Origin: Cyanophora paradoxa CCMP329
Lineage: Eukaryota > Plantae > Glaucophyta
Length of the DNA stretch: 64,000 nucleotides
Assembly: GCA_004431415.1 (NCBI GenBank)
Contig: QPMI01000408.1
Coordinates: forward strand, 62,001-126,000
Reading direction: 5' to 3'
The notes below the pieces were generated by a model. That model saw only the letters and a program-made list of their open reading frames with translations, did not search any database and was not told where the DNA came from. Positions 23,801 to 64,000 of the stretch are shown piece by piece. The position numbers and the translations under genes are program-made. The first letter of the stretch is position 1. Every line of letters begins with the position of its first letter.

Positions 23801-24151
23801 GGGCGTCAGGCCGCTATTTTCCAACCAGGCCTGGACAGCGTCTTCCGCCCAGAGGCGGGACGGAGCATCGCAGAGCTCGCCCTCCATTTCGAAAAGATGG
23901 AGGTCGATGCCCTCGCGGACGAACAAGGCGTGATGCATACGCGCGAGTTCGTCTTCGGGAATGCCCTCTGGCGGGGTGGGGGAGGGGGGCGCCGGAGGCC
24001 TCTCCTTGTCCCGCTGCCCCTCCTCGTCACCCTCACCATTGTCATCGGCGGCGGCGCGCTTGCGGCCTGCACGAGTGGTATATTTGAGCGGGATGGCCGG
24101 CTGACCAGTCGCCTGCTCGAGGGCGCCGCCCTTGCGGGTGGCGGTGCCGGT
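20798..24151 (-). CDS. Gypsy ORF1 (large, in the Gag position), 3' part, split by A2+A3
   Basis: Open frame of >1100 codons; joins in frame to 63913+ (...RRATG|TATRKGG...). Confidence 0.7.
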   Translation of the reverse strand, partial: TGTATRKGGALEQATGQPAIPLKYTTRAGRKRAAADDNGEGDEEGQRDKERPPAPPSPTPPEGIPEDELARMHHALFVREGIDLHLFEMEGELCDAPSRLWAEDAVQAWLENSGLTPDQNPDVHNVTLPAGHTLRRWLKEELNQPPWHRFDQWHARGRLPVWNSFEPQLRMPDRHPANYAALRRAVATWELHALRDGRILPIHGFPANVDDWTNEYWDTFFLDRHQMDVRALPPYYVANRDPATKGKGPSLNVVDPTPSHARWLVSAWPHEPEAGYTDYVAPEHWTLPDDVKLYYDKARLPYLSAKLNTAAEQSAREPCPNVMDLAGYDDSRSWLAQPSYAAMLANAGIWEPPMADLRAPAPVPPAAPPAEPMQTEDEAGAEAPQPPSPSLAEVTAEGDTGSDTDARTKRSEPHIQWQTPLADAVPGPSASPATDRKEKGKVAPVAEPGTWYDAKDERVRVSNAFLRLLADPEPQLASVVTNSSHWAALPFFPTLPPTAATAVADAAAATGKDSAGPNAAPRAVPPASCLYHPEGHDAYSAFHTLVATILANLPGHNRGIPACMMLYGIEGPIATASLSAASVQGALYAPTMAGIPNDVMRWLASQPSASRENASPWLSAYLCLNSILIHIFRGTHCAISTHATHGHFNRERLDAQLRSYREGRFGRASGILSPVRNKAAGFRALVPGDPALTRNAQDVFTNLRTFHEMVLAQPTGSVEATACSGPTHTAMHSPPVGETDRRLAGLPQRVYALGRENVNARKHEHVPGRNAPPEPAHPPPNMWEAVPVRERLAGILAGFVLAMVSHIMMRRPAASVASDPKTAAEIPHHVLLVPAVYDFLREVLMSPDPRSIVGARVGQRATGSDGNPLFSVKVEAHQGHAVARADDSAELAQACWVPLGTLLWLAMPRLPQAPQPPSVPGTDVWWGGATDKRAALLNALRQLWGSGTLQRLKLALTVSETTASTSESADAPYLPMRFLERLLPAETSALGVSEALRETCGFTNANSYHEQYARHPPCAQQQVRDAFRDWTQEIYTTLWPLMAGSTSPVPTLRLNHLTAAPVLAEHVAEPVAEPGDAGWPQARARRLAISCSQGTCGAGAHAALPRPGAPGDREHDR

Positions 24152-24993
24152 AAAAAAATGAGATAGTGGGGGTTCCAGCCCACCCACCTCTTTCTCACCC
24201 TCACTCCTCCAAACCACCCCAACCCACACACTCCAACGCCTTCCAACACACATTCTCTTCCATCCCTTCGTTACGTCTACCACCACAACCTCTCCAAACC
24301 AACCATCCAGCAACCGCTAGGTAGTATCTAACGTCTAGTCCGATCGATTTTGCAAAAGATATAGCAGTGATTTTAGGCGGACCCCAAAGCGCCGGTCTCA
24401 GAATAATCTTCAGATACAGCTAGACGTTAATTTTGTGTACTTTGAATCTAACAGAGAAAACATGTTTAGCTCAATTCTAGACGATATTAATGAGTACAAT
24501 GAAGCTAACAGAGGAAACACGTTTAGCTCAATTCTAGACGTTAATTGTGTGTATTTCGAAATGAGATAGTGGGGGTGCCAGCCCACCCCCCTCTTTCTCA
24601 CCCTCACTCCTCCAAACCCACCCCAACCCACCCACTCCAACGCCTTCCCAACCACCACTTCCGTCCACTCTCTCCTTACGTCTACCACCTTCCTCTCCCT
24701 CTGGTCTACCTCTCCTTCCAAACAGCAACCGCTAGGTAATATCCAACGTCTAGACCGATCGATCTTGCAAAAGATATAGCAATGATTTGAGGCGGACCCC
24801 CAAAGCGCCGGTCTCAGAATCATCTTCAACATCATTTAGACGTTAATTGTGTGTATTTCGAATCTAAAAAACAAAGAGGTTTCAAGGGTTATGCTACACG
24901 TAATTACTATATCATCGGAATCTAATTACATACTCGAGTTCAGGTTCTAGCTAGACGCTAATTATTCCCACCGATGACGTAGTCCAAGTTTAG
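24152..24993 (+). repeat. A2 left terminus with a duplicated TIR unit
   Basis: Two units starting ATGAGATAGTGGGGGT (~24158 and ~24561), separated by ~57-bp repeats containing GTTTAGCTCAATTCTAGACG. Confidence 0.85.
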
Positions 24994-25094
24994 GTTCAGG
25001 TTATAACTATGTCTTAGAGGTTTCAGCAACAATATAAAATGATATAAGAGATCGCGCTGATCAACCGAAATTTATTTCTAGCGACACTTTCAAA

Positions 25095-28000
25095 ATGAAT
25101 CAATTTGCTCGTCGTCGTCAGATAGCGTTATTAAAACAACAGATCGTAGGTCTAGCACAAACTTTGTATGAGCGTAGACGTATTCATGGACTATATCGAA
25201 ACAAATTACTCCGAATCTCATCACCAGGATCTCGAACTCGACTTGTGACGCTGCAACGAACTGTTGATGTGCTTTCAATGCTCGCTGCTGTAGTCGGACA
25301 AACGAGACGTGCCTCAGAGCGAACTGTGCAGATAATCATCGCTGAGAACCAAGCTGAACTGGTAGCACTTTTCAATGAACTCCCTGGACAGCCAAATGAG
25401 GAACTTGCTGGAGATGGTTCACGCGAGACGGCACTAGATGGAATATACGCACTCGAAAGCGCTGCGATCATCAGGCCGAACGGTCTAAGAGTTACATCGC
25501 TCGCGTCGTACATGGCGAACACCCCAGATTTCAAAGCAAAATTTGAGCGTTTCATAACTGAGCGATTGACTGCGGCGAATGAAACACGAATGGGGCTATC
25601 TATAAAGGTATATGCAAAAGGTATTTTTAAGCATAGGCAGAATGGCACAGAAGGTTTTACTAACCGCTTCAAAACAGATGAAATCAGTGAAGATCAATTC
25701 TACCGTATCCTCCCCGGTGCAAACATTGAAGTTGAGCTGCGTGACAGATGTGTTGAGATCGATGGAAGAGCTGAACAGGAGAATGACAGCTGGGAGTTAG
25801 AAACGTGGACGTATTTTTACATACAAAGTCTAGAACATGTCCGCGCCGTTGGTGGCGCATCATTTGAACTTCCATCATGGATTAGCAAGAAGAACGCAGT
25901 CATAAACGTGGAGGCACCAGATAATATGTGTTTTACGTATTCAGTTTTATCCGCAAAGTTCCCAGTCGATCGGCATGCTCAACGTGCTGCCAAGTACAGA
26001 GAGCACCTAAGTACGATCAACACATCAATGCTCAGTTATCCTGTCCCGCTTGATTCAAAGATATTCCGTCGGTTTGAAGAGGCAAACAATCTGAAGCTAT
26101 GCGTGTATGTGGCTGATAATGAAAAGCTAGATATCACTCCATATTATATTTCAGCGGCTCGAGATGCTATTCCTCTGCTATTCGTGACTGGCGAAGGTAG
26201 TTATGGCCACTTCGTTTGGATCAAGAACGTGAGTCGAATGTTTTCTCGTCCTGGAATTGACAAGAACGCACGCAGCTATTGTCTCGCTTGTCAAAAAGGA
26301 TTTCGCGGTGATGATGCTCTTCAGAAACACATCGAAGAAGACAGATGCCTCGAACGAGACGAACATGGCCGTGATGTGCTTCCAAAACCCGACCGTTCAA
26401 CATTGAAATTCCTGAACCATGCGAATACGATAACGGCACGATATGTTGGAGCCTATGATTTTGAAACACTTGCAATGTCTACGAACTCTGTGAAAAATGG
26501 AAAGACAGAGGAAATTGCATGTCAAATACCAGCTGCTGTTGGATGTTTGATCACAGGCAATGATGATACAAAATATTGGCACGTAAATAGCGGACGTAGA
26601 TGTGAGGAGAGGTTTGTTGAATGGCTAGATTCAATGGAACCAACTTTAAAGAAAGGGCTAAATGCATCGGTACAGCGATAAAAACAGATGTTGCAAAGCA
26701 AACGTTTGATTCAGCTACTAGTTGCTATATCTGTAACGTTGAATTCAGCGAGAAGATCAAAAAGGTTTGGGACCACGATCACGATAATGGTGATTTCAAA
26801 GGTGCTGCTTGTCCTGGCTGCAACCGTAGAAGATTCAAATCAAAACGTGTTTTCTTGATTGCTCACAATGCTCGAGGATTTGATTCGCATTTGCTGATCC
26901 GCGCAATTGCAAAGGGAAGTGTTCGTAGACATGCCGCACATATTGAATTTAAGAAAAAGTTGATTGAAAAACTTGGATCAGTCCGAACACGACTTGAGAA
27001 GACATATCAAAATCAAAGCGTGAGGAATGGACGATGAACAAACTGAGCATAAATGCTGAGGAGTATGAGAAACGAGTTCCAGGATTTATCAAGAACCAGC
27101 TTGTTAAAGAAAAAATCAAATTCGAGAGATCTGAGACACCGCTTTCAAATCGTTTCGAAGTGATGTTCCAAAACTCCGAGAAAATGAGTCAAATTGAGTA
27201 CGGCATTTACGTATTCCGCGACAGCATGCAACATCTATCAGCAACGCTCGAAAAGCTAGCGGCATCGCTTCCAGATGAACTGAAAAAGCAAACTCGCGAG
27301 TTATGTCCCGATGCGGAAACGTTTAATTTGATGACAAGAAAGGGCATCTATCCCTACAGCTACGTAAATTCCTGGCAGCGGCTTGCAGACCGTAAGCTAC
27401 CTCCGATAGAGGCGTTTCACAATGACTTGAAAAACGAAAAGTGCAAGCTTGAAGATTATGAGCACGCACAGAAGGTTTGGAAAAAGCTGAAATGTAAGAC
27501 AATGTTAGATTACACGATTGCTTATATGAAACTTGATATAACGTTACTATCAGATGTGTTTCAAGCGTATCGGGAAACATCTCGCGCTACAGATGGCATA
27601 GATCCTGCATATTACATGTCACTACCAGGCTTTAGTTGGGATGCTGCTCTAAAATATACAGGTGGGCAATTACAGCTGTTGCATGAGGGTCAAGAGGATA
27701 TGTTCAGATTCTTCGAGACAGGTATTCGTGGTGGTATTTCAATGGTGTCAAATCGATATGCAAAAGCGAACAATAAGGACATGGTTGATTATGATCCATC
27801 CAAACCATCAGTATATCTGTACTATATAGATGCAAATTCGTTGTATGGATATGCGATGTTAGAGAAACATCCGATTGGAGATTTTAAATGGGTTGATCCA
27901 GAAACCTTTGACCATGATGGTTTCGATTATGACGGTGATATAGGAGCAACGCTTGAAATTGATGCTTACATTCCAGATGAGCTTCACGAGAAATTTAATG

Positions 28001-29135
28001 ATTACCCGATTGCGCCAGTATCAATGATTGTAGATCCAACGATGCTATCTAGATCACAACAGGATATGATTAAAAAGGATTGCATTCAGATGAAGACGCG
28101 AAAGCTTATTCCAAGTCTGCTTCCATTGAAGAAATATGTTGTTGATGGGAGACTACTCAAATTTTACAGAAGTCAAGGTTTTGTGGTGAGTAAAATTCAT
28201 CGTGTTATTACGTACAAGCAGACTGCTTGGATGAAACCGTATGTGGAAAAAAATGCCGAAATGCGTCAGGCCGCAACCTTTGATCATGTGCGAGATCTAT
28301 TCAAACTCAAGACTAATGCATTATACGGCAAAAATATGGAAAACGTGAGAAAGCATTGCGATGCGGAGCTTGTGACTGATAGTGTCAGACTGTCAAAAAT
28401 TGCCGCACAACCAAATTTATTGAAGCAAATTGTCAAATATGATGAGGATCTTGTATTTATCTCTAAGCGGCGTTCACAAGTCAAATTAAACAAACCGATA
28501 TACAGTGGATTCAGTGTTTTGGAAATGTCAAAACTACACATGTTTAAAATGTATTACGAGCAACTAAAACCGCTCTGGGTCCGCGTGTTAAATTGCTTGC
28601 AACGGATACTGACTCGCTAATCCTTAGAATTGAGACAGATGATTTGTACGCTGATCTGAAAAATATAAGTCACCTTTTAGATGTTAGCAAATATCCGGAG
28701 TCACATCGATTCTTTGCAGGAATGTCGGACGAAGAAATTGCCACCATGAAGAAAGAATCGACAGCCCTTGGCAATTTCAAAGATGAGTGCAATGGTAAGC
28801 AAATGGTAGAATTCATCGCGAACAGACCTAAGAGTTATTGGTATCAGATCGACAGTGGTAAGCAAGAGCGTCGATGCAAGGGGATTTCTAAAAGCTTTGC
28901 CGACCAGCTTACACGGGAAAGATATATTGATTGTGTTCTTGGTAAAGTTGTAGATGGACAGAAACTATACTTATCATGTGAAGTGAATGGAATTCGAGGT
29001 ATGCGCTCAAAGAAACATCGTGTTTATGTGCAAGAAACCTCAAAACAGGCACTACATTCGCTAGATACAAAACGCTGGCTTTGCGATAATGGCGTAGAAA
29101 CAATGGCGCTTGGACATTGTCGCACTCGTATTTGA
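25095..29135 (+). pseudogene. Divergent protein-primed PolB, split into four ORFs by frameshifts
   Basis: YDFE, AHNARGFD, YIDANSLYG, KLKTNALYGK and TDTDS across ORFs 25095, 26621, 27034 and 28593. The breaks may be sequencing indels. Confidence 0.88.
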
Positions 29136-29456: not shown

Positions 29457-29554
29457 TACAATATCACTTTATTATTAATCATAATCACAATCTTTTTAAG
29501 GCATATTCACGCGATATCCACCAAAAACTTTTTATGTGTGTGACAATTAGAAGA

Positions 29555-30481
29555 ATGTACACGATAACAGCTCCACCGGGTGTCTGGCAAATTGATGTAT
29601 TATTTATTGGTAGGTATCGTCTGTTTGCAGCGGTCGAGATTGCAACCCGTTTCGCTATCGTGCGAAAAATAGAAACATTCAAACAACTTCCAAAAATGAT
29701 CGCGGAGCTACCAGGGATCTGGGGTTTCTCCGCCGACAACGGTTTTAACACAGCAGCAATTCGGGCAATGGCCGAAGAGAACTCGTTGAAAATGCACACT
29801 GATGTTACCAAAGATGACCACATTTCTAAAGGTAACAAACTTGGAATTATTGACAGGTTCGCTAGGACATTGCGAGCACTTATCCGAGCTGACACAGAAG
29901 CACGCGGATCACCACATTTCCTCTCACGCTTGCCTGCGATTTTGAAGGCGTACAATGAAACAGCACACAATGCATTTGGTGAAGAGCGATCACCAACGTG
30001 GATGCGTGAAAAAACACAGGTTGCCGAGCAGCTACATCAAGTTCGACAGCGACAGAACGATATTGAACGAGAGAACACAAATATGCCTAAACCAGGTTCG
30101 GAGGTGCAGATCCTTGAGCCTAAGCCAAGCGTGTTTGCAAAGGGTCTGGCGAAACCAAGCAAAGAGACCTACGTTGTTGCTGGCGTTGATAAGAACCGTG
30201 TTAGGTTAATTACAAAGCAAGGTGTGGAAATTTCTAGACGTGTTAAACCATCCGAGATTCGTGCGCCACAAGAACTACCTGACCAGTCTAAGATTGAAAG
30301 AGCGACTGCTAGATCGAAGCAAGATCGTCAGCTTCGGAGAGAGGGTCTCGTTGAAACGAAAACGTATGCGGGTCAAAACCGGAAGGATCGTGAGTTAAAA
30401 AAACTCGAAATTGCTGCTGAACCATTGCTCAGAGCAGGCGCCAAACCCGCTGGATATTACGCAAAGAGAATTCGAAGGTAG
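29555..30481 (+). CDS. rve integrase (A2)
   Basis: Close homolog of 7663-8565 starting MYTITAPPG, with a different C-terminal tail. Confidence 0.88.
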   Translation: MYTITAPPGVWQIDVLFIGRYRLFAAVEIATRFAIVRKIETFKQLPKMIAELPGIWGFSADNGFNTAAIRAMAEENSLKMHTDVTKDDHISKGNKLGIIDRFARTLRALIRADTEARGSPHFLSRLPAILKAYNETAHNAFGEERSPTWMREKTQVAEQLHQVRQRQNDIERENTNMPKPGSEVQILEPKPSVFAKGLAKPSKETYVVAGVDKNRVRLITKQGVEISRRVKPSEIRAPQELPDQSKIERATARSKQDRQLRREGLVETKTYAGQNRKDRELKKLEIAAEPLLRAGAKPAGYYAKRIRR

Positions 30482-30536: not shown

Positions 30537-30785
30537 ATGACCGATATCAACCTTCCGATATACGTTGCCTTTGCAATCCAGCAACACATTGAATATCTTC
30601 TACTGAAACATTGCCGGAGGAGAATCCACCGACCCACCAACCACTATGTCCGTGTTTCCTTTGACAAACGAACCGATAAATGGAAAGCAGAAACCAAAAT
30701 CAATGGTTGCAAGAAGATAATCGGTTATTATGATTCATTCGAAGATGCTTATAAAGATCAAACATCGAAATCACGGTTTAATTGA
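30537..30785 (+). CDS. Small AP2-domain-like protein
   Basis: YVRVSFDKRTDKWKAETKING.KKIIGYYDSFEDAY; occupies the HNH-AP2 slot. Confidence 0.65.
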   Translation: MTDINLPIYVAFAIQQHIEYLLLKHCRRRIHRPTNHYVRVSFDKRTDKWKAETKINGCKKIIGYYDSFEDAYKDQTSKSRFN

Positions 30786-30810
30786 AGGAATAACACCCTT
30801 TATCTTTTTG

Positions 30811-31179
30811 ATGGATATTGAAGATTTAGAAATATGTTGGCCGGGGAGATCACAACTTTCACCATGCCACTGCATCAGCTTCGGCATTTACAAGGGCGCA
30901 AGCTATTTGTGGATTGCCTCAGCTAAACCAGAATATACTAGTTGGTTGCTTAGACAAGATTGGTTGCCGGCTTTCGACCGGGCCGCTTTCTTGCGTGTAA
31001 AAAGCTTGATAGAGCCGAAAAATCTCCAGAAGATTTATCAACAGAGTAGACGCGGTCCACGGTCGCGGCTTCAAATATCAAAACCTGATACGAATGACCC
31101 CATTCAAGGAAAAGACGCATTAAAACTGCTCGACTCGCTCCGGCGTTGTATTCGGCAAAGACGCAATCGAACTCTTTAA
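30811..31179 (+). CDS. FG.YKG-motif small protein (A2 copy)
   Basis: Near-identical to 6304-6672. Confidence 0.5.
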   Translation: MDIEDLEICWPGRSQLSPCHCISFGIYKGASYLWIASAKPEYTSWLLRQDWLPAFDRAAFLRVKSLIEPKNLQKIYQQSRRGPRSRLQISKPDTNDPIQGKDALKLLDSLRRCIRQRRNRTL

Positions 31180-31652
31180 TATTCGATAGAATCGACGAAA
31201 AGCATACATATTCGCAATTTCGCCGAATCGTCGGACTAATGCCACATAGACGTTGTGTCGTGATAAAGAGCGATATATTGTAATGTCTTCCGCTAGTAAA
31301 AAGCTTTTGCATTAATCGGTCACTGTGGACGTTTACTAGGTCATTATCAAGCAAGTCATCTAAAACAATTGCTATTTTTCGATCATCTTTCTTGCGTCGT
31401 CTTTCTTTTGACGTTCTAAAAGTTCTTCAACCAAAACTGTATCCCATTCTTCATAAATATTGCTCTTGCGAGTGGTATCGTCCCACTGTTCTGTAAATGC
31501 CGTTGTGCTGAAGACGTAAATATCGTCTAGCTGATTTGCTACAGCATTTAATACGTGTTTTACGTAGGTGCTTTTGCCCGAGTTGGTGGGCCGACAAACA
31601 AGAACCGTTTAGGAAGTTTTACTTCTGCTGGATCAAACAATTTGATATCCAT
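30950..31652 (-). pseudogene. Packaging ATPase of A2 with two 1-bp homopolymer deletions
   Basis: 703 bp against 705 bp in A1; otherwise near-identical. Confidence 0.85.
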
Positions 31653-31653
31653 T

Positions 31654-32723
31654 TTAGAAGTTACTTACTTTTAGAGTCGACATTTGATATGAATTAATTA
31701 CGAGAACGTTGTGGCGCAGGACGTGAAAATCGACTACAGCTGGTGCGGTGTTTGTACATCCGGTGACAGTGAGGGAGCAGTAGCTGCTGCTTGAGTTGAA
31801 GAAGTCTGTGTAGCCGAGGACAGCGTTGTGGAGGGAGTCTTTGCCAGATTTCGAAAGCACAATACCATAGACATTTCCGTCTTCAAAACCAAGGGCTGAA
31901 TTACCAGTTGTTGCTCCGCGATATTGAGTTGGGATATGATAGCAGCTCGAAACAAATCCAGAGATTGGCTTATTACTGATATCGAGAGTGCGATTATTGT
32001 GCATGATCTCAAACGAATCAATCTTCAAAGCGTTACCGTTACCGGCAAATGAATTATGATTGCGAGTGCCCAGGTGATTCGCATTACGCACTGTCATCAG
32101 GATCGCGTGCACAAGGCCGCTAACGTTAGCAAGGGATATTTCGACAGCGTTTCCTGCGTCGTCCGTCTTAAGCTGGCGTGAGCGCTTTGAAATGATTTCA
32201 GTAAAGGGAATTCTAATACCGCCAGACTCGTTCGCAGATTTTAGCATAGACTCTGCCTCTTCGCTAGGAATATTCACGAACTGACAAACCAGGGCACAAT
32301 CCGTTAGAGTCGCAATAGCATCAGCAACAGTTCCAATCACACCAGCCGAACGGAAGTCAATCTCGACGGTTGGCATATCCGCAAGTGCTAGCAGAGGGAA
32401 ATATGAATTGTCCCAAAGCTGTGATGGGATCTTCAGCACGTACTCTCGGCTAGCATCGAGAATCTCTAGAGCTGCGTCTTTTCCAAAGCCGTAGCTGCTA
32501 GCAAAAGCTTGGGCGGATGCGACGCTGTTATCAATCAGTGCGTTCACTGTAAGCCAATCACCGGGAATTACCATTTTGAAAGATCCATGAACAAAGCGTA
32601 CGTTTTCAATAAATGCACCAGCACCATTAGGAAGAACCGAAGCGGCAGCTCCACCAGCGACTGTTACCTTAAAATATAGGGAGACGCCATTTAGAAGTTG
32701 CTTGCGCGGAAGGTCGAAAGCAG
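31654..32723 (-). pseudogene. A2 major capsid gene, 3' part (disrupted by B)
   Basis: With 50697-50861, minus the 5-bp TSD, it reconstitutes exactly the 1230-bp MCP gene. Confidence 0.93.
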
Positions 32724-33128: not shown

Positions 33129-33129
33129 A

Positions 33130-50696: not shown

Positions 50697-50861
50697 AGCA
50701 GCAGTCTGTGCGAATCCGTATGAGTTGCCTCGCGGACGGATCGTCTCAAGGAAAGGCTTAAACTTTGGGCTAACACCGACAGTTAGACCTGGCGATAGAT
50801 AAAGCTCGTTCGATCCTTTGGTTGTTAGGAGCTCTTTCAGAGTAGTTCCTGCTTGCGCCAT
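50697..50861 (-). pseudogene. A2 major capsid gene, 5' part
   Basis: MAQAGTTLKELL...FAQTAA, then the B TIR. Confidence 0.93.
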
Positions 50862-50905
50862 TTGATATTATATTACAGAATATTTTCACGTATATTGTTG
50901 TAAAG

Positions 50906-51781
50906 ATGAAACTCCGCGTAAATGTTGATTCTAGAGATCGGTTCGAAGGCACGTCCTCGAATTTCAAAATTAATCTGCCTCGGGCGTTAGCAAACGTGAA
51001 GTCGGCTAGAATTGAATCGCTAGAACTTTTTCACAATATGTATAATCTAGCTGCTGATGCTTCAATAACAACCATTACGCTCGATCCTAGCAATGTAATT
51101 AAAACCAGAACGAACCTATTTCGAGCTGGATCATATACTCCAACATCTCTTACGAATTATATGAACGTTCTTTTGAAAACACAACAATACAGTTATTTGG
51201 GGAGTACTTACCAACGCAAGTTCTTAACGGTTTTTGATGATGTTTCAATGAAAATCACAATCTTGTGTGAATCGGAGTTTACTCTGACGTTTTCCACTCT
51301 TGAACTCGCAAATCTGCTCGGCTTCACAAAGGCTGTTACAGATTCCGCAGAACAGCTGGATACTCCAATCACAGTTGATGCTGTTGATTATGCGTTTGCT
51401 ATCGTTGGCGATATACCTGTTGATCTTCTTTATCATACTTATCTCTTCCTACATATCGATCAGATTCGTGGTTCGATTCACACAATAAATAACTGGACAA
51501 ACACATCGTTGGCAAAGATTCATATCGATGCGAAATTTGGAGAGCTTATCAAATATACATCTGATGAACGTGTTCCTGTTTCCGTCGATCATAATTCTGA
51601 GTTAGAACAACTTGATGTGTCAATACGTTATTTTAATGGATTTACTGCAGCTATTAACACTGAATTCTCATTCGTTATCGAGTTCGAAATTGAAGATTCT
51701 TCATACACAAAGGCATCACTTCGCTCGTCAATCAGAAACACAGATAGTGAGTTTCATCCGTTTGATCGCAGTTTTGCTTAA
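50906..51781 (+). CDS. Putative minor capsid protein (A2)
   Basis: Near-identical to 3678-4553. Confidence 0.75.
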   Translation: MKLRVNVDSRDRFEGTSSNFKINLPRALANVKSARIESLELFHNMYNLAADASITTITLDPSNVIKTRTNLFRAGSYTPTSLTNYMNVLLKTQQYSYLGSTYQRKFLTVFDDVSMKITILCESEFTLTFSTLELANLLGFTKAVTDSAEQLDTPITVDAVDYAFAIVGDIPVDLLYHTYLFLHIDQIRGSIHTINNWTNTSLAKIHIDAKFGELIKYTSDERVPVSVDHNSELEQLDVSIRYFNGFTAAINTEFSFVIEFEIEDSSYTKASLRSSIRNTDSEFHPFDRSFA

Positions 51782-51851
51782 ATTCACTTTCGCGAATGCG
51801 CAGCCGAGGCAGCTTGTCTGTCGACTTTTTTCTGTTCCTTATTTAAAACAA

Positions 51852-52484
51852 ATGGTGCGTAGCACAAGTGGCTACTTGCCTTCGGCTTCTAGAAAACTTA
51901 CAAACTCACCCAATAAAAAGAATAATATTGAATTTTTGAGCGGTGATACTGAATCCTATCCTTTAGTTCGTCGGACTGCTGGTGGTGAGGGTGCGTCTAT
52001 CGATTTTGCTCTTACTGCCGACGAAAACGCTATTCTAGATAATATCCCAAATTCGCGGACAAAGAAAAGCAAAACTAGTAAACTGAAGGATACTGACGAT
52101 GGTCCGCTGTATGTATCAGAGACTGGTAATCGTAGCAGATATTTCATTAAAACAGTGACTGGGTTGAAAACAATTTCAAAGAAGCGTGCTGGTGATCTTA
52201 TTGCTGGTATAGCGGTTGAGACTAAAATGGAAAACAAGATTTTAAACGAACCGATTGCTAAGACCAAAATTGATAAAAAGCTTTCTCCTCCATCATCTGC
52301 TGTTCCTGCTAAGACGATCGTCGCAATCCCCGAGGTGGATGAGAATGCTAGCGAATTACCTGTAGCAAACACATCGATCTTGCGCATCGCCTCTAGCAGC
52401 GCTGATCCTGTCGGGCCGTCGATCGAATACAAACCAATGTTAAGTGGTTTCACTAAACTTGGACTACGTCATCGGTGGGAATAA
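51852..52484 (+). CDS. Candidate core protein (A2)
   Basis: Same protein as 2975-3607. Confidence 0.7.
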   Translation: MVRSTSGYLPSASRKLTNSPNKKNNIEFLSGDTESYPLVRRTAGGEGASIDFALTADENAILDNIPNSRTKKSKTSKLKDTDDGPLYVSETGNRSRYFIKTVTGLKTISKKRAGDLIAGIAVETKMENKILNEPIAKTKIDKKLSPPSSAVPAKTIVAIPEVDENASELPVANTSILRIASSSADPVGPSIEYKPMLSGFTKLGLRHRWE

Positions 52485-52880
52485 TTAGCGTCTAGCTAGA
52501 ACCTGAACTCGAGTATGTAATTAGATTCCGATGATATAGTAATTACGTGTAGCATAACCCTTGAAACCTCTTTGTTTTTTAGATTCGAAATACACACAAT
52601 TAACGTCTAGATGATGTTGAAGATTATTCCGAGACCGGCGCTTTGGGGGTCCGCCTCAAATCATTGCTATATCTTTTGCAAGATCGATCGGTCTAGACGT
52701 TGGATATTACCTAGCGGTTGCTTGATGGTTGGTTTGGATAGGTTGTGGGGTAGACGTAACGAAGGATTGGAAGAGTGTGTTGGTTGGAAGGCGTTGGAGT
52801 GTGTGGGTTGGGGTGGTTTGGAGGAGTGAGGGTGGTGAAGAGGTGCGGGCCACAGAATCAGGTCCTCTCTCATTTTTTTT
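52453..52880 (-). repeat. A2 right TIR
   Basis: Direct repeat of 63486-63912; ends GGTCCTCTCTCA-T8. Confidence 0.9.
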
Positions 52881-53710
52881 AAAAAAATGAGATAGTGGGG
52901 GTTCCAGCCCACCCACCTCTTTCTCACCCTCACTCCTCCAAACCACCCCAACCCACACACTCCAACGCCTTCCAACACACATTCTCTTCCATCCCTTCGT
53001 TACGTCTACCACCACAACCTCTCCAAACCAACCATCCAGCAACCGCTAGGTAGTATCTAACGTCTAGTCCGATCGATTTTGCAAAAGATATAGCAGTGAT
53101 TTTAGGCGGACCCCCAAAGCGCCGGTCTCAGAATAATCTTCAGATACAGCTAGACGTTAATTTTGTGTACTTTGAATCTAACAGAGAAAACATGTTTAGC
53201 TCAATTCTAGACGATATTAATGAGTACAATGAAGCTAACAGAGGAAACACGTTTAGCTCAATTCTAGACGTTAATTGTGTGTATTTCGAAATGAGATAGT
53301 GGGGGTGCCAGCCCACCCCCCTCTTTCTCACCCTCACTCCTCCAAACCACCCCAACCCACACACTCCAACGCCTTCCAACCAACACACTCTTCCAATCCT
53401 TCGTTACGTCTACCCCACAACCTATCCAAACCAACCATCAAGCAACCGCTAGGTAATATCCAACGTCTAGACCGATCGATCTTGCAAAAGATATAGCAAT
53501 GATTTGAGGCGGACCCCCAAAGCGCCGGTCTCGGAATAATCTTCAACATCATCTAGACGTTAATTGTGTGTATTTCGAATCTAAAAAACAAAGAGGTTTC
53601 AAGGGTTATGCTACACGTAATTACTATATCATCGGAATCTAATTACATACTCGAGTTCAGGTTCTAGCTAGACGCTAATTATTCCCACCGATGACGTAGT
53701 CCAAGTTTAG
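52881..53710 (+). repeat. A3 left terminus with a duplicated TIR unit
   Basis: Direct repeat of 24152-24993 except for a variant patch in unit 2. Confidence 0.88.
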
Positions 53711-54311
53711 TGAAACCACTTAACATTGGTTTGTATTCGATCGACGGCCCGACAGGATCAGCGCTGCTAGAGGCGATGCGCAAGATCGATGTGTTTGCTA
53801 CAGGTAATTCGCTAGCATTCTCATCCACCTCGGGGATTGCGACGATCGTCTTAGCAGGAACAGCAGATGATGGAGGAGAAAGCTTTTTATCAATTTTGGT
53901 CTTAGCAATCGGTTCGTTTAAAATCTTGTTTTCCATTTTAGTCTCAACCGCTATACCAGCAATAAGATCACCAGCACGCTTCTTTGAAATTGTTTTCAAC
54001 CCAGTCACTGTTTTAATGAAATATCTGCTACGATTACCAGTCTCTGATACATACAGCGGACCATCGTCAGTATCCTTCAGTTTACTAGTTTTGCTTTTCT
54101 TTGTCCGCGAATTTGGGATATTATCTAGAATAGCGTTTTCGTCGGCAGTAAGAGCAAAATCGATAGACGCACCCTCACCACCAGCAGTCCGACGAACTAA
54201 AGGATAGGATTCAGTATCACCGCTCAAAAATTCAATATTATTCTTTTTATTGGGTGAGTTTGTAAGTTTTCTAGAAGCCGAAGGCAAGTAGCCACTTGTG
54301 CTACGCACCAT
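53679..54311 (-). CDS. Candidate core protein (A3)
   Basis: Same protein as in A1. Confidence 0.7.
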   Translation of the reverse strand: MVRSTSGYLPSASRKLTNSPNKKNNIEFLSGDTESYPLVRRTAGGEGASIDFALTADENAILDNIPNSRTKKSKTSKLKDTDDGPLYVSETGNRSRYFIKTVTGLKTISKKRAGDLIAGIAVETKMENKILNEPIAKTKIDKKLSPPSSAVPAKTIVAIPEVDENASELPVANTSILRIASSSADPVGPSIEYKPMLSGFTKLGLRHRWE

Positions 54312-54381
54312 TTGTTTTAAATAAGGAACAGAAAAAAGTCGACAGACAAGCTGCCTCGGCTGCGCATTCGCGAAAGTGAAT

Positions 54382-55255
54382 TTAAGCAAAACTGCGATCA
54401 AACGGATGAAACTCACTATCTGTGTTTCTGATTGACGAGCGAAGTGATGCCTTTGTGTATGAAGAATCTTCAATTTCGAACTCGATAACGAATGAGAATT
54501 CAGTGTTAATAGCTGCAGTAAATCCATTAAAATAACGTATTGACACATCAAGTTGTTCTAACTCAGAATAATGATCGACGGAAACAGGAACACGTTCATC
54601 AGATGTATATTTGATAAGCTCTCCAAATTTCGCATCGATATGAATCTTTGCCAACGATGTGTTTGTCCAGTTATTTATTGTGTGAATCGAACCACGAATC
54701 TGATCGATATGTAGGAAGAGATAAGTATGATAAAGAAGATCAACAGGTATATCGCCAACGATAGCAAACGCATAATCAACAGCATCAACTGTGATTGGAG
54801 TATCCAGCTGTTCTGCGGAATCTGTAACAGCCTTTGTGAAGCCGAGCAGATTTGCGAGTTCAAGTGGAAAACGTCAGAGTAAACTCCGATTCACACAAGA
54901 TTGTGATTTTCATTGAAACATCATCAAAAACCGTTAAGAACTTGCGTTGGTAAGTACTCCCCAAATAACTGTATTGTTGTGTTTTCAAAAGAACGTTCAT
55001 ATAATTCGTAAGAGATGTTGGAGTATATGATCCAGCTCGAAATAGGTTCGTTCTGGTTTTAATTACATTGCTAGGATCGAGCGTAATGGTTGTTATTGAA
55101 GCATCAGCAGCTAGATTATACATATTGTGAAAAAGTTCTAGCGATTCAATTCTAGCCGACTTCACGTTTGCTAACGCCCGAGGCAGATTAATTTTGAAAT
55201 TCGAGGACGTGCCTTCGAACCGATCTCTAGAATCAACATTTACGCGGAGTTTCAT
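54382..55255 (-). pseudogene. Minor capsid gene of A3 with a 2-bp deletion
   Basis: CAAGTGG at ~54861 against CAAGAGTGG in A1. Confidence 0.8.
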
Positions 55256-55299
55256 CTTTACAACAATATACGTGAAAATATTCTGTAATATAATATCAA

Positions 55300-56529
55300 A
55301 TGGCGCAAGCAGGAACTACTCTGAAAGAGCTCCTAACAACCAAAGGATCGAACGAGCTTTATCTATCGCCAGGTCTAACTGTCGGTGTTAGCCCAAAGTT
55401 TAAGCCTTTCCTTGAGACGATCCGTCCGCGAGGCAACTCATACGGATTCGCACAGACTGCTGCTTTCGACCTTCCGCGCAAGCAACTTCTAAATGGCGTC
55501 TCCCTATATTTTAAGGTAACAGTCGCTGGTGGAGCTGCCGCTTCGGTTCTTCCTAATGGTGCTGGTGCATTTATTGAAAACGTACGCTTTGTTCATGGAT
55601 CTTTCAAAATGGTAATTCCCGGTGATTGGCTTACAGTGAACGCACTGATTGATAACAGCGTCGCATCCGCCCAAGCTTTTGCTAGCAGCTACGGCTTTGG
55701 AAAAGACGCAGCTCTAGAGATTCTCGATGCTAGCCGAGAGTACGTGCTGAAGATCCCATCACAGCTTTGGGACAATTCATATTTCCCTCTGCTAGCACTT
55801 GCGGATATGCCAACCGTCGAGATTGACTTCCGTTCGGCTGGTGTGATTGGAACTGTTGCTGATGCTATTGCGACTCTAACGGATTGTGCCCTGGTTTGTC
55901 AGTTCGTGAATATTCCTAGCGAAGAGGCAGAGTCTATGCTAAAATCTGCGAACGAGTCTGGCGGTATTAGAATTCCCTTTACTGAAATCATTTCAAAGCG
56001 CTCACGCCAGCTTAAGACGGACGACGCAGGAAACGCTGTCGAAATATCCCTTGCTAACGTTAGCGGCCTTGTGCACGCGATCCTGATGACAGTGCGTAAT
56101 GCGAATCACCTGGGCACTCGCAATCATAATTCATTTGCCGGTAACGGTAACGCTTTGAAGATTGATTCGTTTGAGATCATGCACAATAATCGCACTCTCG
56201 ATATCAGTAATAAGCCAATCTCTGGATTTGTTTCGAGCTGCTATCATATCCCAACTCAATATCGCGGAGCAACAACTGGTAATTCAGCCCTTGGTTTTGA
56301 AGACGGAAATGTCTATGGTATTGTGCTTTCGAAATCTGGCAAAGACTCCCTCCACAACGCTGTCCTCGGCTACACAGACTTCTTCAACTCAAGCAGCAGC
56401 TACTGCTCCCTCACTGTCACCGGATGTACAAACACCGCACCAGCTGTAGTCGATTTTCACGTCCTGCGCCACAACGTTCTCGTAATTAATTCATATCAAA
56501 TGTCGACTCTAAAAGTAAGTAACTTCTAA
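55300..56529 (+). CDS. Putative major capsid protein (A3)
   Basis: Near-identical to 4598-5827. Confidence 0.8.
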   Translation: MAQAGTTLKELLTTKGSNELYLSPGLTVGVSPKFKPFLETIRPRGNSYGFAQTAAFDLPRKQLLNGVSLYFKVTVAGGAAASVLPNGAGAFIENVRFVHGSFKMVIPGDWLTVNALIDNSVASAQAFASSYGFGKDAALEILDASREYVLKIPSQLWDNSYFPLLALADMPTVEIDFRSAGVIGTVADAIATLTDCALVCQFVNIPSEEAESMLKSANESGGIRIPFTEIISKRSRQLKTDDAGNAVEISLANVSGLVHAILMTVRNANHLGTRNHNSFAGNGNALKIDSFEIMHNNRTLDISNKPISGFVSSCYHIPTQYRGATTGNSALGFEDGNVYGIVLSKSGKDSLHNAVLGYTDFFNSSSSYCSLTVTGCTNTAPAVVDFHVLRHNVLVINSYQMSTLKVSNF

Positions 56530-56530
56530 A

Positions 56531-57235
56531 ATGGATATCAAATTGTTTGATCCAGCAGAAGTAAAACTTCCTAAACGGTTCTTGTTTGTCGGCCCCACCA
56601 ACTCGGGCAAAAGCACCTACGTAAAACACGTATTAAATGCTGTAGCAAATCAGCTAGACGATATTTACGTCTTCAGCACAACGGCATTTACAGAACAGTG
56701 GGACGATACCACTCACAAGAGCAATATTTATGAAGAATGGGATACAGTTTTGGTTGAAGAACTTTTAGAACGTCAAAAAGAAAGACGACGCAAGAAAGAT
56801 GATCGAAAAATAGCAATTGTTTTAGATGACTTGCTTGATAATGACCTAGTAAACGTCCACAGTGACCGATTAATGCAAAAGCTTTTTACTAGCGGAAGAC
56901 ATTACAATATATCGCTCTTTATCACGACACAACGTCTATGTGGCATTAGTCCGACGATTCGGCGAAATTGCGAATATGTATGCTTTTCGTCGATTCTATC
57001 GAATATTAAAGAGTTCGATTGCGTCTTTGCCGAATACAACGCCGGAGCGAGTCGAGCAGTTTTAATGCGTCTTTTCCTTGAATGGGGTCATTCGTATCAG
57101 GTTTTGATATTTGAAGCCGCGACCGTGGACCGCGTCTACTCTGTTGATAAATCTTCTGGAGATTTTTCGGTTCTATCAAGCTTTTTACACGCAAGAAAGC
57201 GGCCCGGTCGAAAGCCGGCAACCAATCTTGTCTAA
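56531..57235 (+). CDS. Packaging ATPase (A3)
   Basis: Near-identical to 5829-6533. Confidence 0.93.
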   Translation: MDIKLFDPAEVKLPKRFLFVGPTNSGKSTYVKHVLNAVANQLDDIYVFSTTAFTEQWDDTTHKSNIYEEWDTVLVEELLERQKERRRKKDDRKIAIVLDDLLDNDLVNVHSDRLMQKLFTSGRHYNISLFITTQRLCGISPTIRRNCEYVCFSSILSNIKEFDCVFAEYNAGASRAVLMRLFLEWGHSYQVLIFEAATVDRVYSVDKSSGDFSVLSSFLHARKRPGRKPATNLV

Positions 57236-57374: not shown

Positions 57375-57403
57375 CAAAAAGATAAAGGGTGTTATTCCTT
57401 CAA

Positions 57404-57940: not shown

Positions 57941-58051
57941 ATTTCTTCTTTTTCGTTACATTTACAGATTGCATTATCTTTAAGCCTAAAAAGTCGCGCT
58001 AATTTGTTATAAAAGGATTTATGTCTCATATTATTGAGACATAAGCGAACA

Positions 58052-58360
58052 ATGAGTTCTGCAGATTATACTGCTGTAAAGCGTGGCCGTGGACGTCCGC
58101 CAAAGGTTCGTCTTTTGACAATGGATTCATATGAACCAAAGAAGAAGGGTCGTAAGCCAATAGAGGTAACACCGGAGATTTTAGCAGAGCGACGCAGAAA
58201 GAATGCTGAACGGAATCGTAAACTACGTCATACGAACGAAACATATCGTTTGAAACAGCTTGCCATCACAGCAAAATATCGAGCTGAAAATCCTGATCGT
58301 ATTCGGGAGTACCACAGAAATGCTATTTCGCGTAGATGTCTTGCTAAAGACGTTGCTTAG
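58052..58360 (+). CDS. AT-hook basic protein (A3)
   Basis: As 7371-7679. Confidence 0.7.
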   Translation: MSSADYTAVKRGRGRPPKVRLLTMDSYEPKKKGRKPIEVTPEILAERRRKNAERNRKLRHTNETYRLKQLAITAKYRAENPDRIREYHRNAISRRCLAKDVA

Positions 58361-59246
58361 CACCAGCTCTAAGCTTTGGCTCTCCTGCAATCTCAAGCTT
58401 CTTGAGCTCTCGATCCTTCCGGTTTTGGCCGCTGTATTTTTTCGTTTCGATCAATCCCTCGCGTCTCAATCGTCTCTGCTGTCGCATTTTCACTTCTTCT
58501 TTTTCGATTCGTGTTTGATCAGGGAGATCACGAGGTTGACGTATTTCAGATGGTTTAACACGCCTAGAAATTTCCACACCTTGCTTTGTAATTAACCTAA
58601 CGCGGTTCTTATCAGCGCCAGCAACTATGTACGTCTCTTTGCTTGGTTTTGCCAGACCCTTCGCAAAAACACTGCTCTTTGGCTCAAGGATCTGCACCTC
58701 CGTGCCAGGTTTAGGCATATTTGTGTTCTCTCGTTCAATATCGTTCTGTCGCTGTCGCACTTGGTGAAGCTGTTCGGCAACCTGTGTATTTTCACGCATC
58801 CACGTTGGTGATCGCTCCTCGCCAAATGCACTGTGGGCTGTCTCATTGTACGCCTTGACAATTGCCGGCAAACGTGAGAGGAAATGCGGTGATCCACGTG
58901 CTTCAGTGTCAGCTTGGATAAGTGCTCGCAATGTCCTAGCGAACCTGTCGATAATTCCAAGTTTGTTACCTTTAGAAATGTGGTCATCTTTGGCAACATC
59001 AGTGTGTATTTTCAACGAGTTCTCTTCGACCATTGCCCGAATCGCAGCTGTGTTAAAACCGTTGTCGGCGGAGAAACCCCAGATCCCTGGCAGTTGCTCA
59101 ATCATTTTTGGAAGTTGTTTGAATGTTTCTATTTTTCGAACGATAGCGAAACGGGTTGCAATTTCTACGGCCGCAAACAGGCGATATCTCCCAATAAATA
59201 ATACATCAATTTGCCATGCACCAGGTGGCGCTGTTAGAGTGTACAT
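58344..59246 (-). CDS. rve integrase (A3)
   Basis: As 7663-8565. Confidence 0.88.
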   Translation of the reverse strand: MYTLTAPPGAWQIDVLFIGRYRLFAAVEIATRFAIVRKIETFKQLPKMIEQLPGIWGFSADNGFNTAAIRAMVEENSLKIHTDVAKDDHISKGNKLGIIDRFARTLRALIQADTEARGSPHFLSRLPAIVKAYNETAHSAFGEERSPTWMRENTQVAEQLHQVRQRQNDIERENTNMPKPGTEVQILEPKSSVFAKGLAKPSKETYIVAGADKNRVRLITKQGVEISRRVKPSEIRQPRDLPDQTRIEKEEVKMRQQRRLRREGLIETKKYSGQNRKDRELKKLEIAGEPKLRAGAKQRL

Positions 59247-59255
59247 CCTTATTAT

Positions 59256-62200
59256 TCAGACACGATTTTTGTAATGCCCAATAGCCCAGGTGTTGATTTT
59301 ATCATTATCTAGAAAACGCTTCGTATCTAGCGGATGCAACGCTTGACGAGAGGTATTTTGCAGATATATTTCATGTCGTTTCGAACGGAAACCGAGAATT
59401 CCTTTGATATCATACGATTGTTTTTCTCCTTTTTTTGGGCAGACACACCGGAGGAATACATCCCTTGTGAGTCTGTTGTAATATGTTTTTTGAATACCTT
59501 TGCACACCTGCTTATCTGTGGAATCTTCACGCGAATAATAGTAAGATTTCGGCCGGTTAGCGATCCACTCTGTCATTTGTAGACCATGAAGCTCATCCTT
59601 GAATAATCCCGGAGTTTTCCCCATCGATCGTAGAGCTCGAACCTCATCGGCTGTCATGCCATCAAAGAATCGATGTGTCTCTGGGTAGTCGCTAACATCC
59701 AGCTCATGCTTGATTGAGCGTAAATCAGCATAGATATCTTTGGTGCGAACCTCGATGATGAGACTGTCAGTATCAGTTCCAAGTAGCTTAAGCCGATGAC
59801 CCCAAAGCGGTTTGAGCACCTGATAGTAGAAGCGATACATGTGCAGCTTGGACAATTCGAGAATGACAAATCCACAGTAAATTGGTTTATTTAAATTATA
59901 CTCACTTTTTCGCTTGGAAACGAATACAAGGTTCTCTTCGTACATCACCACCTGCTTCAACCGATTTGGTTCGCTGTTTATCTTTGCCAAACGATCACCA
60001 GATGTAACAAGCTCGGAGAAACAGTGTTTTCTCACGTTCTCCATCGTCTTTCCGAATACACTGTTATTCATTAACTTGAAGAGATCCTGTTTGTATTTGT
60101 GATCAGCACGCTTGCGTTCACTTGTATTAAGATCGATGAAATCGTTCAGCCACGCACTTTGTTCGTACGATAAAACACGGTGGATGTTGGTTACAATCAT
60201 TCCCAGTGTAGTATAAAGCTTAAGCAAACGCCCATCAACAACATAATTCTTCTTTGGCAACAGGTTTGGAACCAATTTTGGGGTTCTTTCGACTGAAGTA
60301 AGCTTTTCGTTGTTAATCATATCCTGCTGTTGTTTCGATAGATGATCTATGGACACGCACATTCGTTCAGGAGCTAGTGGATAATCTGAGAAATCATCGT
60401 GGAGATGGTCAGGCATGTACATATCAACTTCTAGAGCATAGCCACGAGGACCATCAGCGTCAAGGTTTTCAACGAACTGCATAGCATCAACATCTTGATC
60501 GAGTTTTTCCCAGCGGAAACCTCCAGTGGGGAGTTTTTGTTTCATAGCAACGCCATACAGATTATTCGCATCAAGGTACATCAGCCACGATTCTTTGCCT
60601 GTTTTTTCGTAGTTTTGCACACATTCAATCTGGGTTGCTGATTCATCAGCATGCGTATATTTTCCAAATTTCTTTAAAATTGTCGCTGCTTTTGCTGCTT
60701 TCTTTTTATTCTTTGCAATCACTCTTGAACTCATGTCTTTTACGTGTTTCAGGAACTCGTTATCAGCTTTAGCGTATCTCTTTGATATCATGCTGATGCC
60801 ACCCTAATTCCTGATTCTATGAATCTATACATATCTTGTTGTCCCTCGTGAAAAAGCTCAAGCTTAATTCCTGTGCGTTTAAGAGCAGCTTGCCAAGCGA
60901 ATCCTGGTGATGATATGAAATAGCTTGGATCTAATCCATACGTTTCCATGCATGTATCACGATAGTTTTCAAATACATCGGCAAGTAACGAAATGTCAGT
61001 ATTCATATATTCCATAGTATAGTCTGATATCGTTCTACATGCAAGCTTTCTCCAAACGATCTGAGCATGTGCGTACTCGTCTTTTGAGCATTTCTTTTGT
61101 TTTAGTTCGTTCTTAAAGTATCGACGTACAGGTAGTTCTGTTTCTTGAAAACGTTGCCAGCTTGATATATAGCTATATGGATATATCCCCTTGCTTGTCA
61201 TCAACTCGAATCTAGTATCATCCGGATACATTGTGCGCGTGATCTTCTTCTTCTCCGCTGGGACCGCTTTCGCTAGATCATCCAAACTAGCATTCAAATG
61301 TTGCATCGAATCACGAAGTACATAAATTCCATACTTAAACTGTGATATCTTCTCGCTATTCTGAAAGGTTTGATCAAATTTGATCGAAAGGAGACTCTGC
61401 GGGCGGAGCCGGCGTTCGAGCCCCTTCTTAACCTTCTTTTTCTGCTCTGGGGTCATCTCACGTCCACCGTACTTGCTTTGAAACTCACTTTCGACATGTG
61501 CTTGAAACTCAGCCCAAGCTGCTGAACGGCGGTTTTTGCCAGATGCTATTGCTCTCACGAACAGGTGAAAGTCAAATCCACGACCATTATGAAAGAATAT
61601 AGGAACAGCAGCAGATTTTGCACGGCGGCGATTGCAAGCACGACAGGCTGCTCCAATGTATTTACCTGTATCATGACAGTGATCACGGTGCTTGTCTTTG
61701 ATATCTTTGAACGTGTTTTTGCACATATAACAGTCTGTCGTTGTTTGAAAACACTGTTCCTCTTCCGGATTCATCTGGATTGGTACACTTGCTTTGAGAA
61801 GTTCTCTAAATTGTGGTTCCATTTCGTCAAGCCATTTTACGAACTTATCAGCACAGTCTTCATTCTCGGAACCCATACATTTAAATGAAAACTGTTCGCC
61901 TTTCGAAGATACAACCAGACAGCCGACTGAAGCAATCACATGCAAACCTTTTTTTTCGGTCTTTCCACTAATGCAGGGAATCGGCAATGTAATAGTCTCT
62001 GAATCAGCATATCCGACCAGACGTTGGCGGATTGTGTACTCATAGTTAATAAACTTCTGGATGTGAGCTCCTTTTTTGGGCAGAACATCTCGTGCGTGTT
62101 CATCGCGTTCGAGACAGCGGTCATATTTAAGATGATTTTCAAATGCTTGATCTGAGCTAAAACCGACCTGGCAGGCTAAGCAATAGTGCTTTGCATTTGA

Positions 62201-63382
62201 TTCGTTCTTTCGGAACAGTCGTGAGACGCTCTTAATCCAGAGGTAATGCCCAACATCGTTTCCCTCCCCAGCCGGCACATACAGTATTGGGATTGCGTCT
62301 CTCGCAGCACTGATATGGATTGGTATGATATCCTGCTTATCTAGAGCAGTTGTATAAACGCAGAGTTTGACGTTATTTGCTTGCTCGAATTTGGTGAACA
62401 TCCTCGAGTCAAGCGGTGTCGGATATGTAAGCATTGAGCAGTCCAGCGATGTCTCGTGCTGGCGGTAGTTCCCTGCATGCCGAGAATCAACACCTTCGCC
62501 CAATGGATTGCGAGCAGAAAGGACTGCGTATTTAAAGCACTCGTTGTTCGGTGCATTTATATTGATAAGCGCGTGCTTGTCTGAGAGCCATTTTGGCAGT
62601 ACAAAGCCTCGGCCACGGCCACCAATCCTTCGGAAATAGCGCACAGTTTTAAAGACCAGATACACCCACGTGTCAAATACTGAGGAATCCCTGCTTTTCT
62701 CTTCCGAGATCATGTCTAATTCTTCGAGCTGTGAACGCAAGGCCGCCTCAATGCTTGTCCCTGGTTCGATGCGATCGAAACGACGATGTTCAATAACGAT
62801 AGCGATCGTAGAATCTGTCTCTGGCTTTCTGTAGACACCCAATCCAGAGATTTGTAGTGCAATGCCCATTCTTGACGTCTCTGCAAGATTTACCTGGGCG
62901 CTTACGAATGATATAGCATTCTGTTTGAAAAGTTCGTTGTTTTCAAATCTGGCTTGCATTGATGTTACACGTCCTGATCCGCGTGGTAGCTGATATTTCC
63001 ACTCTGCATATCGCCCGTCAAGCGCTGTAGTCGTAGTCCCGTCGTTGATTTGAACATCATCTCCGACGTCAACCTCAGGCAGCTCGGCAAAGCCACGGAC
63101 GATCTCTGCCTGCCCCTCTGCGATCGCTAGCTCTAGTCGACGACCTGACACAGGACGCGTTGGTCTAGGAAGTCGAGATAGTTCGTTCAATAGTGAAGCG
63201 TATTTTTCCAACGTTGTATATCTTGTTCTCGATCCTTGCGCTGTAATTCTTAGCAATTTATTTTTGAAAGCACCATGTATGACACGTAGATTGTACAATG
63301 AAGTCGTGAGCGCTTCGATCTGGTCTTTAATACGGGCTGACCGGAAGCGCCGAGTCGCTGCATTATTCTGGGTAACGTCCAT
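59256..63382 (-). CDS. Protein-primed PolB (A3), with a 1-bp homopolymer frameshift near 60802
   Basis: Same motifs as A1; CCC where A1 has CCCC in the GIRGG codons. Confidence 0.92.
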
Positions 63383-63485: not shown

Positions 63486-63912
63486 CTAAACTTGGACTAC
63501 GTCATCGGTGGGAATAATTAGCGTCTAGCTAGAACCTGAACTCGAGTATGTAATTAGATTCCGATGATATAGTAATTACGTGTAGCATAACCCTTGAAAC
63601 CTCTTTGTTTTTTAGATTCGAAATACACACAATTAACGTCTAGATGATGTTGAAGATTATTCCGAGACCGGCGCTTTGGGGGTCCGCCTCAAATCATTGC
63701 TATATCTTTTGCAAGATCGATCGGTCTAGACGTTGGATATTACCTAGCGGTTGCTTGATGGTTGGTTTGGATAGGTTGTGGGGTAGACGTAACGAAGGAT
63801 TGGAAGAGTGTGTTGGTTGGAAGGCGTTGGAGTGTGTGGGTTGGGGTGGTTTGGAGGAGTGAGGGTGGTGAAGAGGTGCGGGCCACAGAATCAGGTCCTC
63901 TCTCATTTTTTT
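63486..63912 (-). repeat. A3 right TIR
   Basis: Inverted relative to the inner unit of the left terminus; the outermost ~45 bp differ. Confidence 0.9.
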
Positions 63913-64000
63913 GCCGGTGGCGCGGCGCGGCCTGCCGCTGCCGCCGCCCTTCTTCCCTGCGGCCTCGAGCACGAGCGGCGGATCGTAATGAACCGCGCGC
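63913..64000 (-). CDS. Gypsy ORF1, upstream part
   Basis: LEAAGKKGGGSGRPRRATG continues in frame into 24145 once one TSD copy is removed. Confidence 0.7.

Follow-up and report, generated by a model that had tools for sequence, protein, structure and literature searches.

Two Polinton-like viruses abutting tip to tip under a single target-site duplication in an assembly of Cyanophora paradoxa

Organization and gene content of the viral elements

The window, a stretch of 64,000 nt, consists of GC-rich eukaryotic DNA (67% GC in the flank) carrying low-GC inserts. Self-comparison combined with Pfam and tblastn searches resolved four Polinton-like viruses within it, here named A to D. Virus A (2548-13256) is a single element near B and C, with terminal inverted repeats (TIRs) of 459 bp, A7..T7 ends and a 6-bp target-site duplication (TSD), CCCCGA. 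Virus B (24152-52879) belongs to the ~11-kb class and measures 10.75 kb net of virus D (32724-50696), which is nested within its capsid gene and has TIRs of 409 bp, AG..CT ends and a 5-bp TSD (AGCAG, at 32719-32723 and 50697-50701). Virus C (52881-63912) is about 11 kb long. The genes of B and C lie head-to-head, with both polymerase ends outermost and facing the host. A genome has one polymerase end, so two genomes are required here however the centre is arranged.

B and C each encode a pPolB, an integrase, a packaging ATPase and a double-jelly-roll capsid protein, and this gene content justifies naming them two viruses. In B, the replication module (25083..29135, + strand) comprises a small ORF and a pPolB in pieces, with 41-49% amino acid identity to the pPolB of A; it is followed by an rve-type integrase (29534..30481, + strand; 88% amino acid identity to those of A and C) and by a frame-broken packaging ATPase with the 3' part of the major capsid gene (30772..32723, - strand; 99.7% nucleotide identity to C). 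In C, predicted structure and fold search identified the major capsid protein (55300..56529, + strand) as a double jelly-roll (model pLDDT 70.6; Foldseek TM 0.66-0.70 and a best E of 2e-19 against the capsids of EhV-201 and PBCV-1). The B copy is 98-100% identical to it, but is split by D. The A32-like packaging ATPase of C (56531..57235, + strand) is 99% identical to the A copy, which matches PF04665 (E 1.9e-11). The C integrase (58344..59246, - strand) was assigned by fold search with a low-confidence model (pLDDT 57.6) whose fold matches were all retroviral integrases (best E 1.5e-7), while its match to Pfam rve, at E 0.008, was below the cut-off. The C pPolB (59256..62959, - strand) has one frame break near 60803 and 93-99.8% amino acid identity to that of A. 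PF03175 was matched on both B (E 1.9e-14) and C, and identity to many PF03175 proteins is ~40%. The combination of pPolB, rve integrase, A32 ATPase and double-jelly-roll capsid is that of Polinton-like viruses; the Pfam scan, which covered 36 of the 81 ORFs, gave no match to a minor capsid protein or a maturation protease.

As the capsid modules of B and C are 99.7% identical in nucleotide sequence while the B pPolB is only 41-49% identical to that of A, against 93-99.8% for C, the pair is a heterodimer and not a self-copy. The modules form a mosaic: B and C share five substitutions relative to A in the capsid/ATPase block, whereas A and C share the integrase and most of pPolB. An endonuclease VII-like insert is present in the pPolB of A (8575-12279). 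The point of divergence between the modules of A, B and C is occupied by an HNH-AP2 gene (6702-7235). All four viral integrases (7663-8565, 29534-30481, 33130-34191 and 58344-59246) read GIIDRF, at a position where DDE integrases usually have glutamate, which suggests, from the motif, a DDD triad.

The capsid family (55300-56529 and 40855-42081) is nearly orphan, yet its model has a clear double jelly-roll fold. No relative was found in a word-indexed search, and only four distant matches were present among 1.84 billion representatives. Viral contigs yielded no relative of the capsid protein or of pPolB, and in PHROGs one of nine proteins had a single weak match (E 0.047).

Virus D, of 18 kb, carries a helicase instead of pPolB, and its capsid protein is 63% identical to that of C. 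A GC-rich insert in its interior (43640-49050) has 350-bp direct repeats at 43640-43989 and 46063-46411, and at 47741-48978 a 147-bp unit is repeated 8.4 times in tandem. On the host side, the region 13710-24145 contains an LTR-retrotransposon-type pol (reverse transcriptase, RNase H and integrase by Pfam), preceded by two long ORFs that had no Pfam match, and the B/C pair interrupts the upstream one of these two ORFs. A homologue search with the interrupted ORF returned none. The ORF is in frame across the TSD, but the 88-base right flank is open in all three frames, and the continuity thus has little weight.

Terminal repeats and the 476-bp centre

The two viruses end in two kinds of tip, designated L and R. 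In the composite L-type terminal repeat at the left end of B (24152..24993), an A7-TGAGATAG tip unit of ~404 bp is fused to another tip with a truncated A run, and the repeat also includes a variant patch (24617-24836) and the inner TIR. At the right end of C, the R-type terminal repeat (63486..63912) is identical in 427 of 427 bases to 52453-52879. Between them lies a 2,147-bp inverted repeat. Its left arm (50697..52843) holds the 5' end of the B capsid gene, two conserved ORFs and the inner TIR, and its right arm (53320..55464) the inner TIR, two conserved ORFs and the 5' end of the C capsid gene; the left arm and the reversed right arm are 99.7% identical. The arms enclose a 476-bp centre (52844..53319) with an R tip, the junction and an L tip unit, which is probably inverted.

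The order of tips across the pair is L..R/L..R, and thus neither unit has matching ends. Over the first 60 nt, the R tip of the centre is identical to the right tip of C (60/60) and the L tip of the centre to the left tip of B (60/60), whereas L and R agree at 45/60 positions. Single elements have matched ends, with one substitution in 459 bp in A and three in 409 bp in D. In B and C the inner TIR matches, but the tips match only when the 476-bp centre is read inverted, which gives B an L tip at both ends and C an R tip at both ends. That one inversion turns two mismatched units into matched ones, and this favours a heterodimer of two ordinary genomes that entered in one event and underwent a later flip of the centre, and speaks against a plain circle recombining with a resident copy. 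The L end of B differs from the L end of the centre at 39 columns, 38 of which fall within 24617-24836. The corresponding direct repeat (24151-24993 and 52880-53710; the 843-bp L/L repeat) starts on a host T. The centre folds into a predicted hairpin of -143 kcal/mol (z -23.6; -39 for the left host junction), which makes it a plausible recombination substrate.

Both L and R are working termini, because each was joined to several other host flanks in all four public runs compared (X1, X3, X18 and X4). The composite L end (24152-24993 and 52881-53710) has an outer TIR unit of ~404 bp that contains CTAGACG three times; at TTTCGAA this unit is fused to another tip, which bears only three A. As contigs in X3 and X18 bridge this joint, it may preserve a second tip-joining event. 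The patch at 24617-24836 matches neither the common type nor, exactly, a related contig in X18 and X4, a pattern that could reflect a third variant or, near these ends, a consensus drawn from mixed sequences.

The junction and the target-site duplication

The centre of the pair reads CTCTCA, T8 (52873-52880), A7 (52881-52887) and TGAGAT, so that the junction (52873..52887, + strand) is present in the assembly as the initial annotation had written it. The hexamer GCCGGT precedes A7 at the left end of the pair (24146..24151, + strand), inside a long GC-rich host/retroelement ORF, and follows T7 at the right end (63913..63918, + strand); it is absent from the central junction. Taken alone, neither B nor C has a flanking direct repeat of at least 2 bp at its full-length ends. 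A TSD of 5-6 bp, a length typical of these integrases (PMC8547959, PMC12220804, from the text available), is therefore present for the B/C pair, for A and for D, and absent for B or C singly. The chance of the hexamer match, given the composition of the flanks, is 7.6e-4. Gene content, fold matches and a TSD found only around the pair bear out the claim of two viruses under one TSD, an arrangement that is real in the assembly and probably real in the genome. The further claim that GCCGGT is duplicated at those two sites only holds for a flanking repeat; as a word, it occurs 24 times on the + strand of the window.

The junction is one T longer than the T7 and A7 of the integrated ends, and the extra T is identical to the last base of the left TSD. 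It had been proposed that host DNA was lacking between the viruses: T8 does meet A7, but this is indistinguishable from one base lying between them. Nor could the joint be called blunt, as homopolymer ends hide small losses or additions. All five indels between near-identical segments are losses of one or two bases in B or C. Where other copies meet host DNA, their terminal runs are T6 or A6 (loose ends at 52878 and 52882 in X1, X3, X18 and X4). Terminal run length thus varies between insertions, and together these observations leave little weight to a single junction base.

Contigs from public runs

The joint was compared with assembled contigs from four of the 20 runs with matches (X1, X3, X18 and X4, from four studies at most); contig depths were not taken as copy numbers. 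Among the pieces listed (32 of 104 in one case), in contigs from which rare variants had been dropped and in filtered records, none of the four runs had one bridging 52880/52881, and none had an alternative joint, an insertion or a deletion there. A bridging piece would be expected to have ~60 bases and to be among the longest. The junction fragment snaps back at -143 kcal/mol; hairpin junctions are possibly under-amplified in PCR libraries (PMC5932611, in the part available). In X3, the contig with the T8 word has 32 bases, and the base that follows is not aligned to the A at 52881; three of the four runs lack the R-tip allele that the window itself has at 52846. The left host junction, GCCGGT-A7, was listed in one of the four (X1, where the loose end equals window 24121-24150); the loose ends listed did not include the right host flank. 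A contig end at the L joint (53348) is expected from graph structure alone and proves nothing. The absence of a bridging contig is uncomfortable for the junction without deciding for or against it; the evidence for the central T8/A7 joint is this one assembly. Elsewhere, the junction-like pattern had one match in viral contigs (L001), an unrelated AT-rich palindrome, and the R-tip pattern had 12 matches in metagenomes; at all 13 of these loci the similarity to the window extends over no more than 27 bases.

Origin of the arrangement

The initial annotation had offered a ligated heterodimer integrated in one event, or a circularised genome recombined into a resident copy through the TIR. The first fits best, provided that an inversion of the centre is added to explain the tips. 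We accordingly favour, at about an even chance, that B and C became joined at their ends and entered the host DNA through one integrase event, and that the short centre was flipped later. One nucleus would have held two ordinary viruses, B bearing an L tip at each end and C an R tip at each end. The integrase would have used the polymerase end of B and the polymerase end of C as its pair, leaving one 6-bp TSD, and the two other ends would have lost their terminal protein and been sealed to each other by the host's end-joining machinery. Joining may have preceded insertion, as a ligated dimer, or followed it, with two molecules in one integration complex; the sequence is compatible with both. 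Recombination between the inverted arms would then have inverted the 476-bp centre and converted one patch of ~220 bp, unless the assembly mis-oriented the centre. D may have entered the B capsid gene afterwards, or while B was still free.

Several points temper this reading. We infer the flip from sequence, and it would require a conversion tract at 24617-24836 to hold 38 of the 39 differing columns. The extra T at the junction, matching the last base of the TSD, is explained directly by rival routes. Concatemer junctions of adenovirus carry large deletions (PMC7552057, in the text available), unlike the B/C joint. The one feature pointing to a putative covalent terminal protein on the free genomes is pPolB.

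The most serious competitor, which we hold to be unlikely though of appreciable probability, is a fault of assembly at the centre, in which T8/A7 would be a mis-join, or would mark lost sequence (more copies or an insert), within the 2.1-kb palindrome, the outer flanks and the two genomes being real. Multi-copy termini, inverted arms at 99.7% identity, the mosaic-looking patch at 24617-24836 and the frame-breaking losses of one or two bases, present in B and C and absent from A, are all in keeping with it. Both arms, however, have a unique anchor nearby: on the left the insertion site of D, at a distance of 2.2 kb, and on the right the host flank, 11 kb away. The matching TSD leaves no host DNA for the middle. 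A fold-back read artefact would yield identical tips, but the tips differ (45/60), and a longer true centre would most likely still hold a tip-to-tip joint.

The circular alternative, taken as a plain circle recombining with a resident through the TIR, predicts outer tips that are alike and junction tips that are alike. With symmetric genomes it is not supported, since L and R lie outside and R and L inside, agreeing at 45/60. It can be restated for an asymmetric L..R resident, from which a circle or copy, closed R to L with a spacer of one host base, had its interior swapped and inverted via the inner TIRs and recombined back. End-to-end joined circles with a spacer are made by the IS3 family. 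Such a route would give the tips in direct order without any flip, and it agrees with a direct repeat (24151-24993 and 52880-53710) that begins on the host T and with the bridging of the composite L joint by contigs in X3 and X18. It demands, on the other hand, prior asymmetry, circularisation, inversion of the interior, exchange of the polymerase module and re-entry, and the tips of A and D are matched. We regard it as improbable.

It had been stated that a TSD consistent with sequential insertion would argue against a single event, and a formal second 6-bp repeat of this kind does exist: TAAAAA, at 24151-24156 and 52880-52885. B would have inserted into the left edge of a resident C, duplicating TAAAAA, and a run of A12 would later have shrunk to A7. 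This reproduces T8/A7 exactly, and transposon tandems commonly arise by double insertion (PMC5932611, in the text available). Reading TAAAAA as a TSD, however, requires A12 at the left end of B, which would then be 5 A short, and exactly five A must have been lost, whereas A7 is observed in the window and in run X1. Moreover, TAAAAA is the start of the 843-bp L/L repeat, in which only the T is informative, and the mismatched tips of both units are left unexplained. Sequential insertion is hence very unlikely, and other routes to the arrangement together retain a still slighter probability.

Two candidates were rejected. A self-primed hairpin dimer or fold-back read does not agree with the lack of a perfect palindrome, as the tips diverge 12 bases in and one side has an extra unit of ~404 bp, and tandem duplication via the TSD would leave GCCGGT at the centre, where it is absent. 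A double-insertion tandem requires a TSD inside the junction, where there is none, except TAAAAA if the left end of B is 5 A short.

Significance

For the handover of terminal-protein-primed Polinton-type genomes to a retroviral-type integrase there are models but as yet no demonstration. As a fossil of integration, a dimer with a single TSD would constrain that step: it requires that the inner ends lost their caps and became linked, and these ends may have kept bases that disappear from integrated ones. Recombination within an L..R dimer with a shared capsid module and differing polymerases would also be a concrete route to the reported swapping of replicases and capsids. We advance, as a doubtful generalisation, that the integrase may pair two linear genomes under one TSD while the host seals the capped inner ends almost losslessly; the joint would then be a free-terminus fossil whose eighth T/A is normally trimmed, and dimers a substrate for capsid/polymerase swaps. 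If the joint is instead a fault of assembly, the practical lesson would be that short-read contigs cannot validate such hairpin junctions. The system looks tractable, because public runs from 15 studies are available and several termini lie at other sites.

Comparison with known systems

The literature searched, which was largely non-subscription, yielded neither a base-level description of two Polinton-like viruses joined tip to tip with a single TSD nor an account of two-molecule end pairing for such viruses. In alternative transposition or hybrid-element insertion of Ac/Ds and P, a DDE enzyme pairs the ends of two molecules and leaves one TSD. In two-donor concerted integration, retroviral intasomes bring together two separate end oligonucleotides in vitro, according to the available text of PMC5329712. 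These are cut-and-paste transposons and in vitro reactions, whereas the pairing proposed here concerns Polinton-like viruses.

Mavirus/EMALE and Polintons share with the viruses of this locus the rve integrase, pPolB, TIRs, a 5-6-bp TSD and nested parasites (PMC8547959, from the text available). The elements described there are single TIR-bounded genomes, and the word "tandem" is absent from the available text of PMC8547959; the capsid of B and C, in contrast, has no close relative. The portions available of PMC10120064, PMC4642659, PMC12721341, PMC8502044, 10.1101/2025.10.09.676808 and 10.1101/2022.07.28.501842 had no bearing on the junction.

Transposon dimers include, as in B/C, two elements at one site, inverted tandems among them, but those formed by double insertion keep a TSD inside the junction, where the B/C joint has none (PMC5932611, in the part available).

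The initial annotation had called end-joined intermediates unexpected for genomes capped by terminal proteins, and this was an overstatement: genomes of E4-mutant adenovirus are ligated into concatemers by non-homologous end-joining (PMC7552057, PMC13685816, as far as their available text goes). As proposed for B/C, these are terminal-protein-primed linear genomes joined by host repair. The adenovirus concatemers described in that text are unintegrated and have large deletions at the junctions, whereas the B/C joint is chromosomal and both its tips have the full A/T runs of integrated ends.

A close parallel comes from tandem polisuviruses (Polintons, PLVs and virophages), reported on one contig as neighbouring genomes with nucleotide-identical capsid modules and different replicases, as in B and C (10.64898/2026.10.13.758929). 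Tandem virophages are also mentioned in the available part of 10.64898/2026.07.28.741278. The available text on the tandem polisuviruses gives no base-level junction, shared TSD or route of formation, whereas B and C have abutting tips, one TSD and a head-to-head order. The B/C locus combines known things, tandem viral integration and end-joining, and each component has a precedent.
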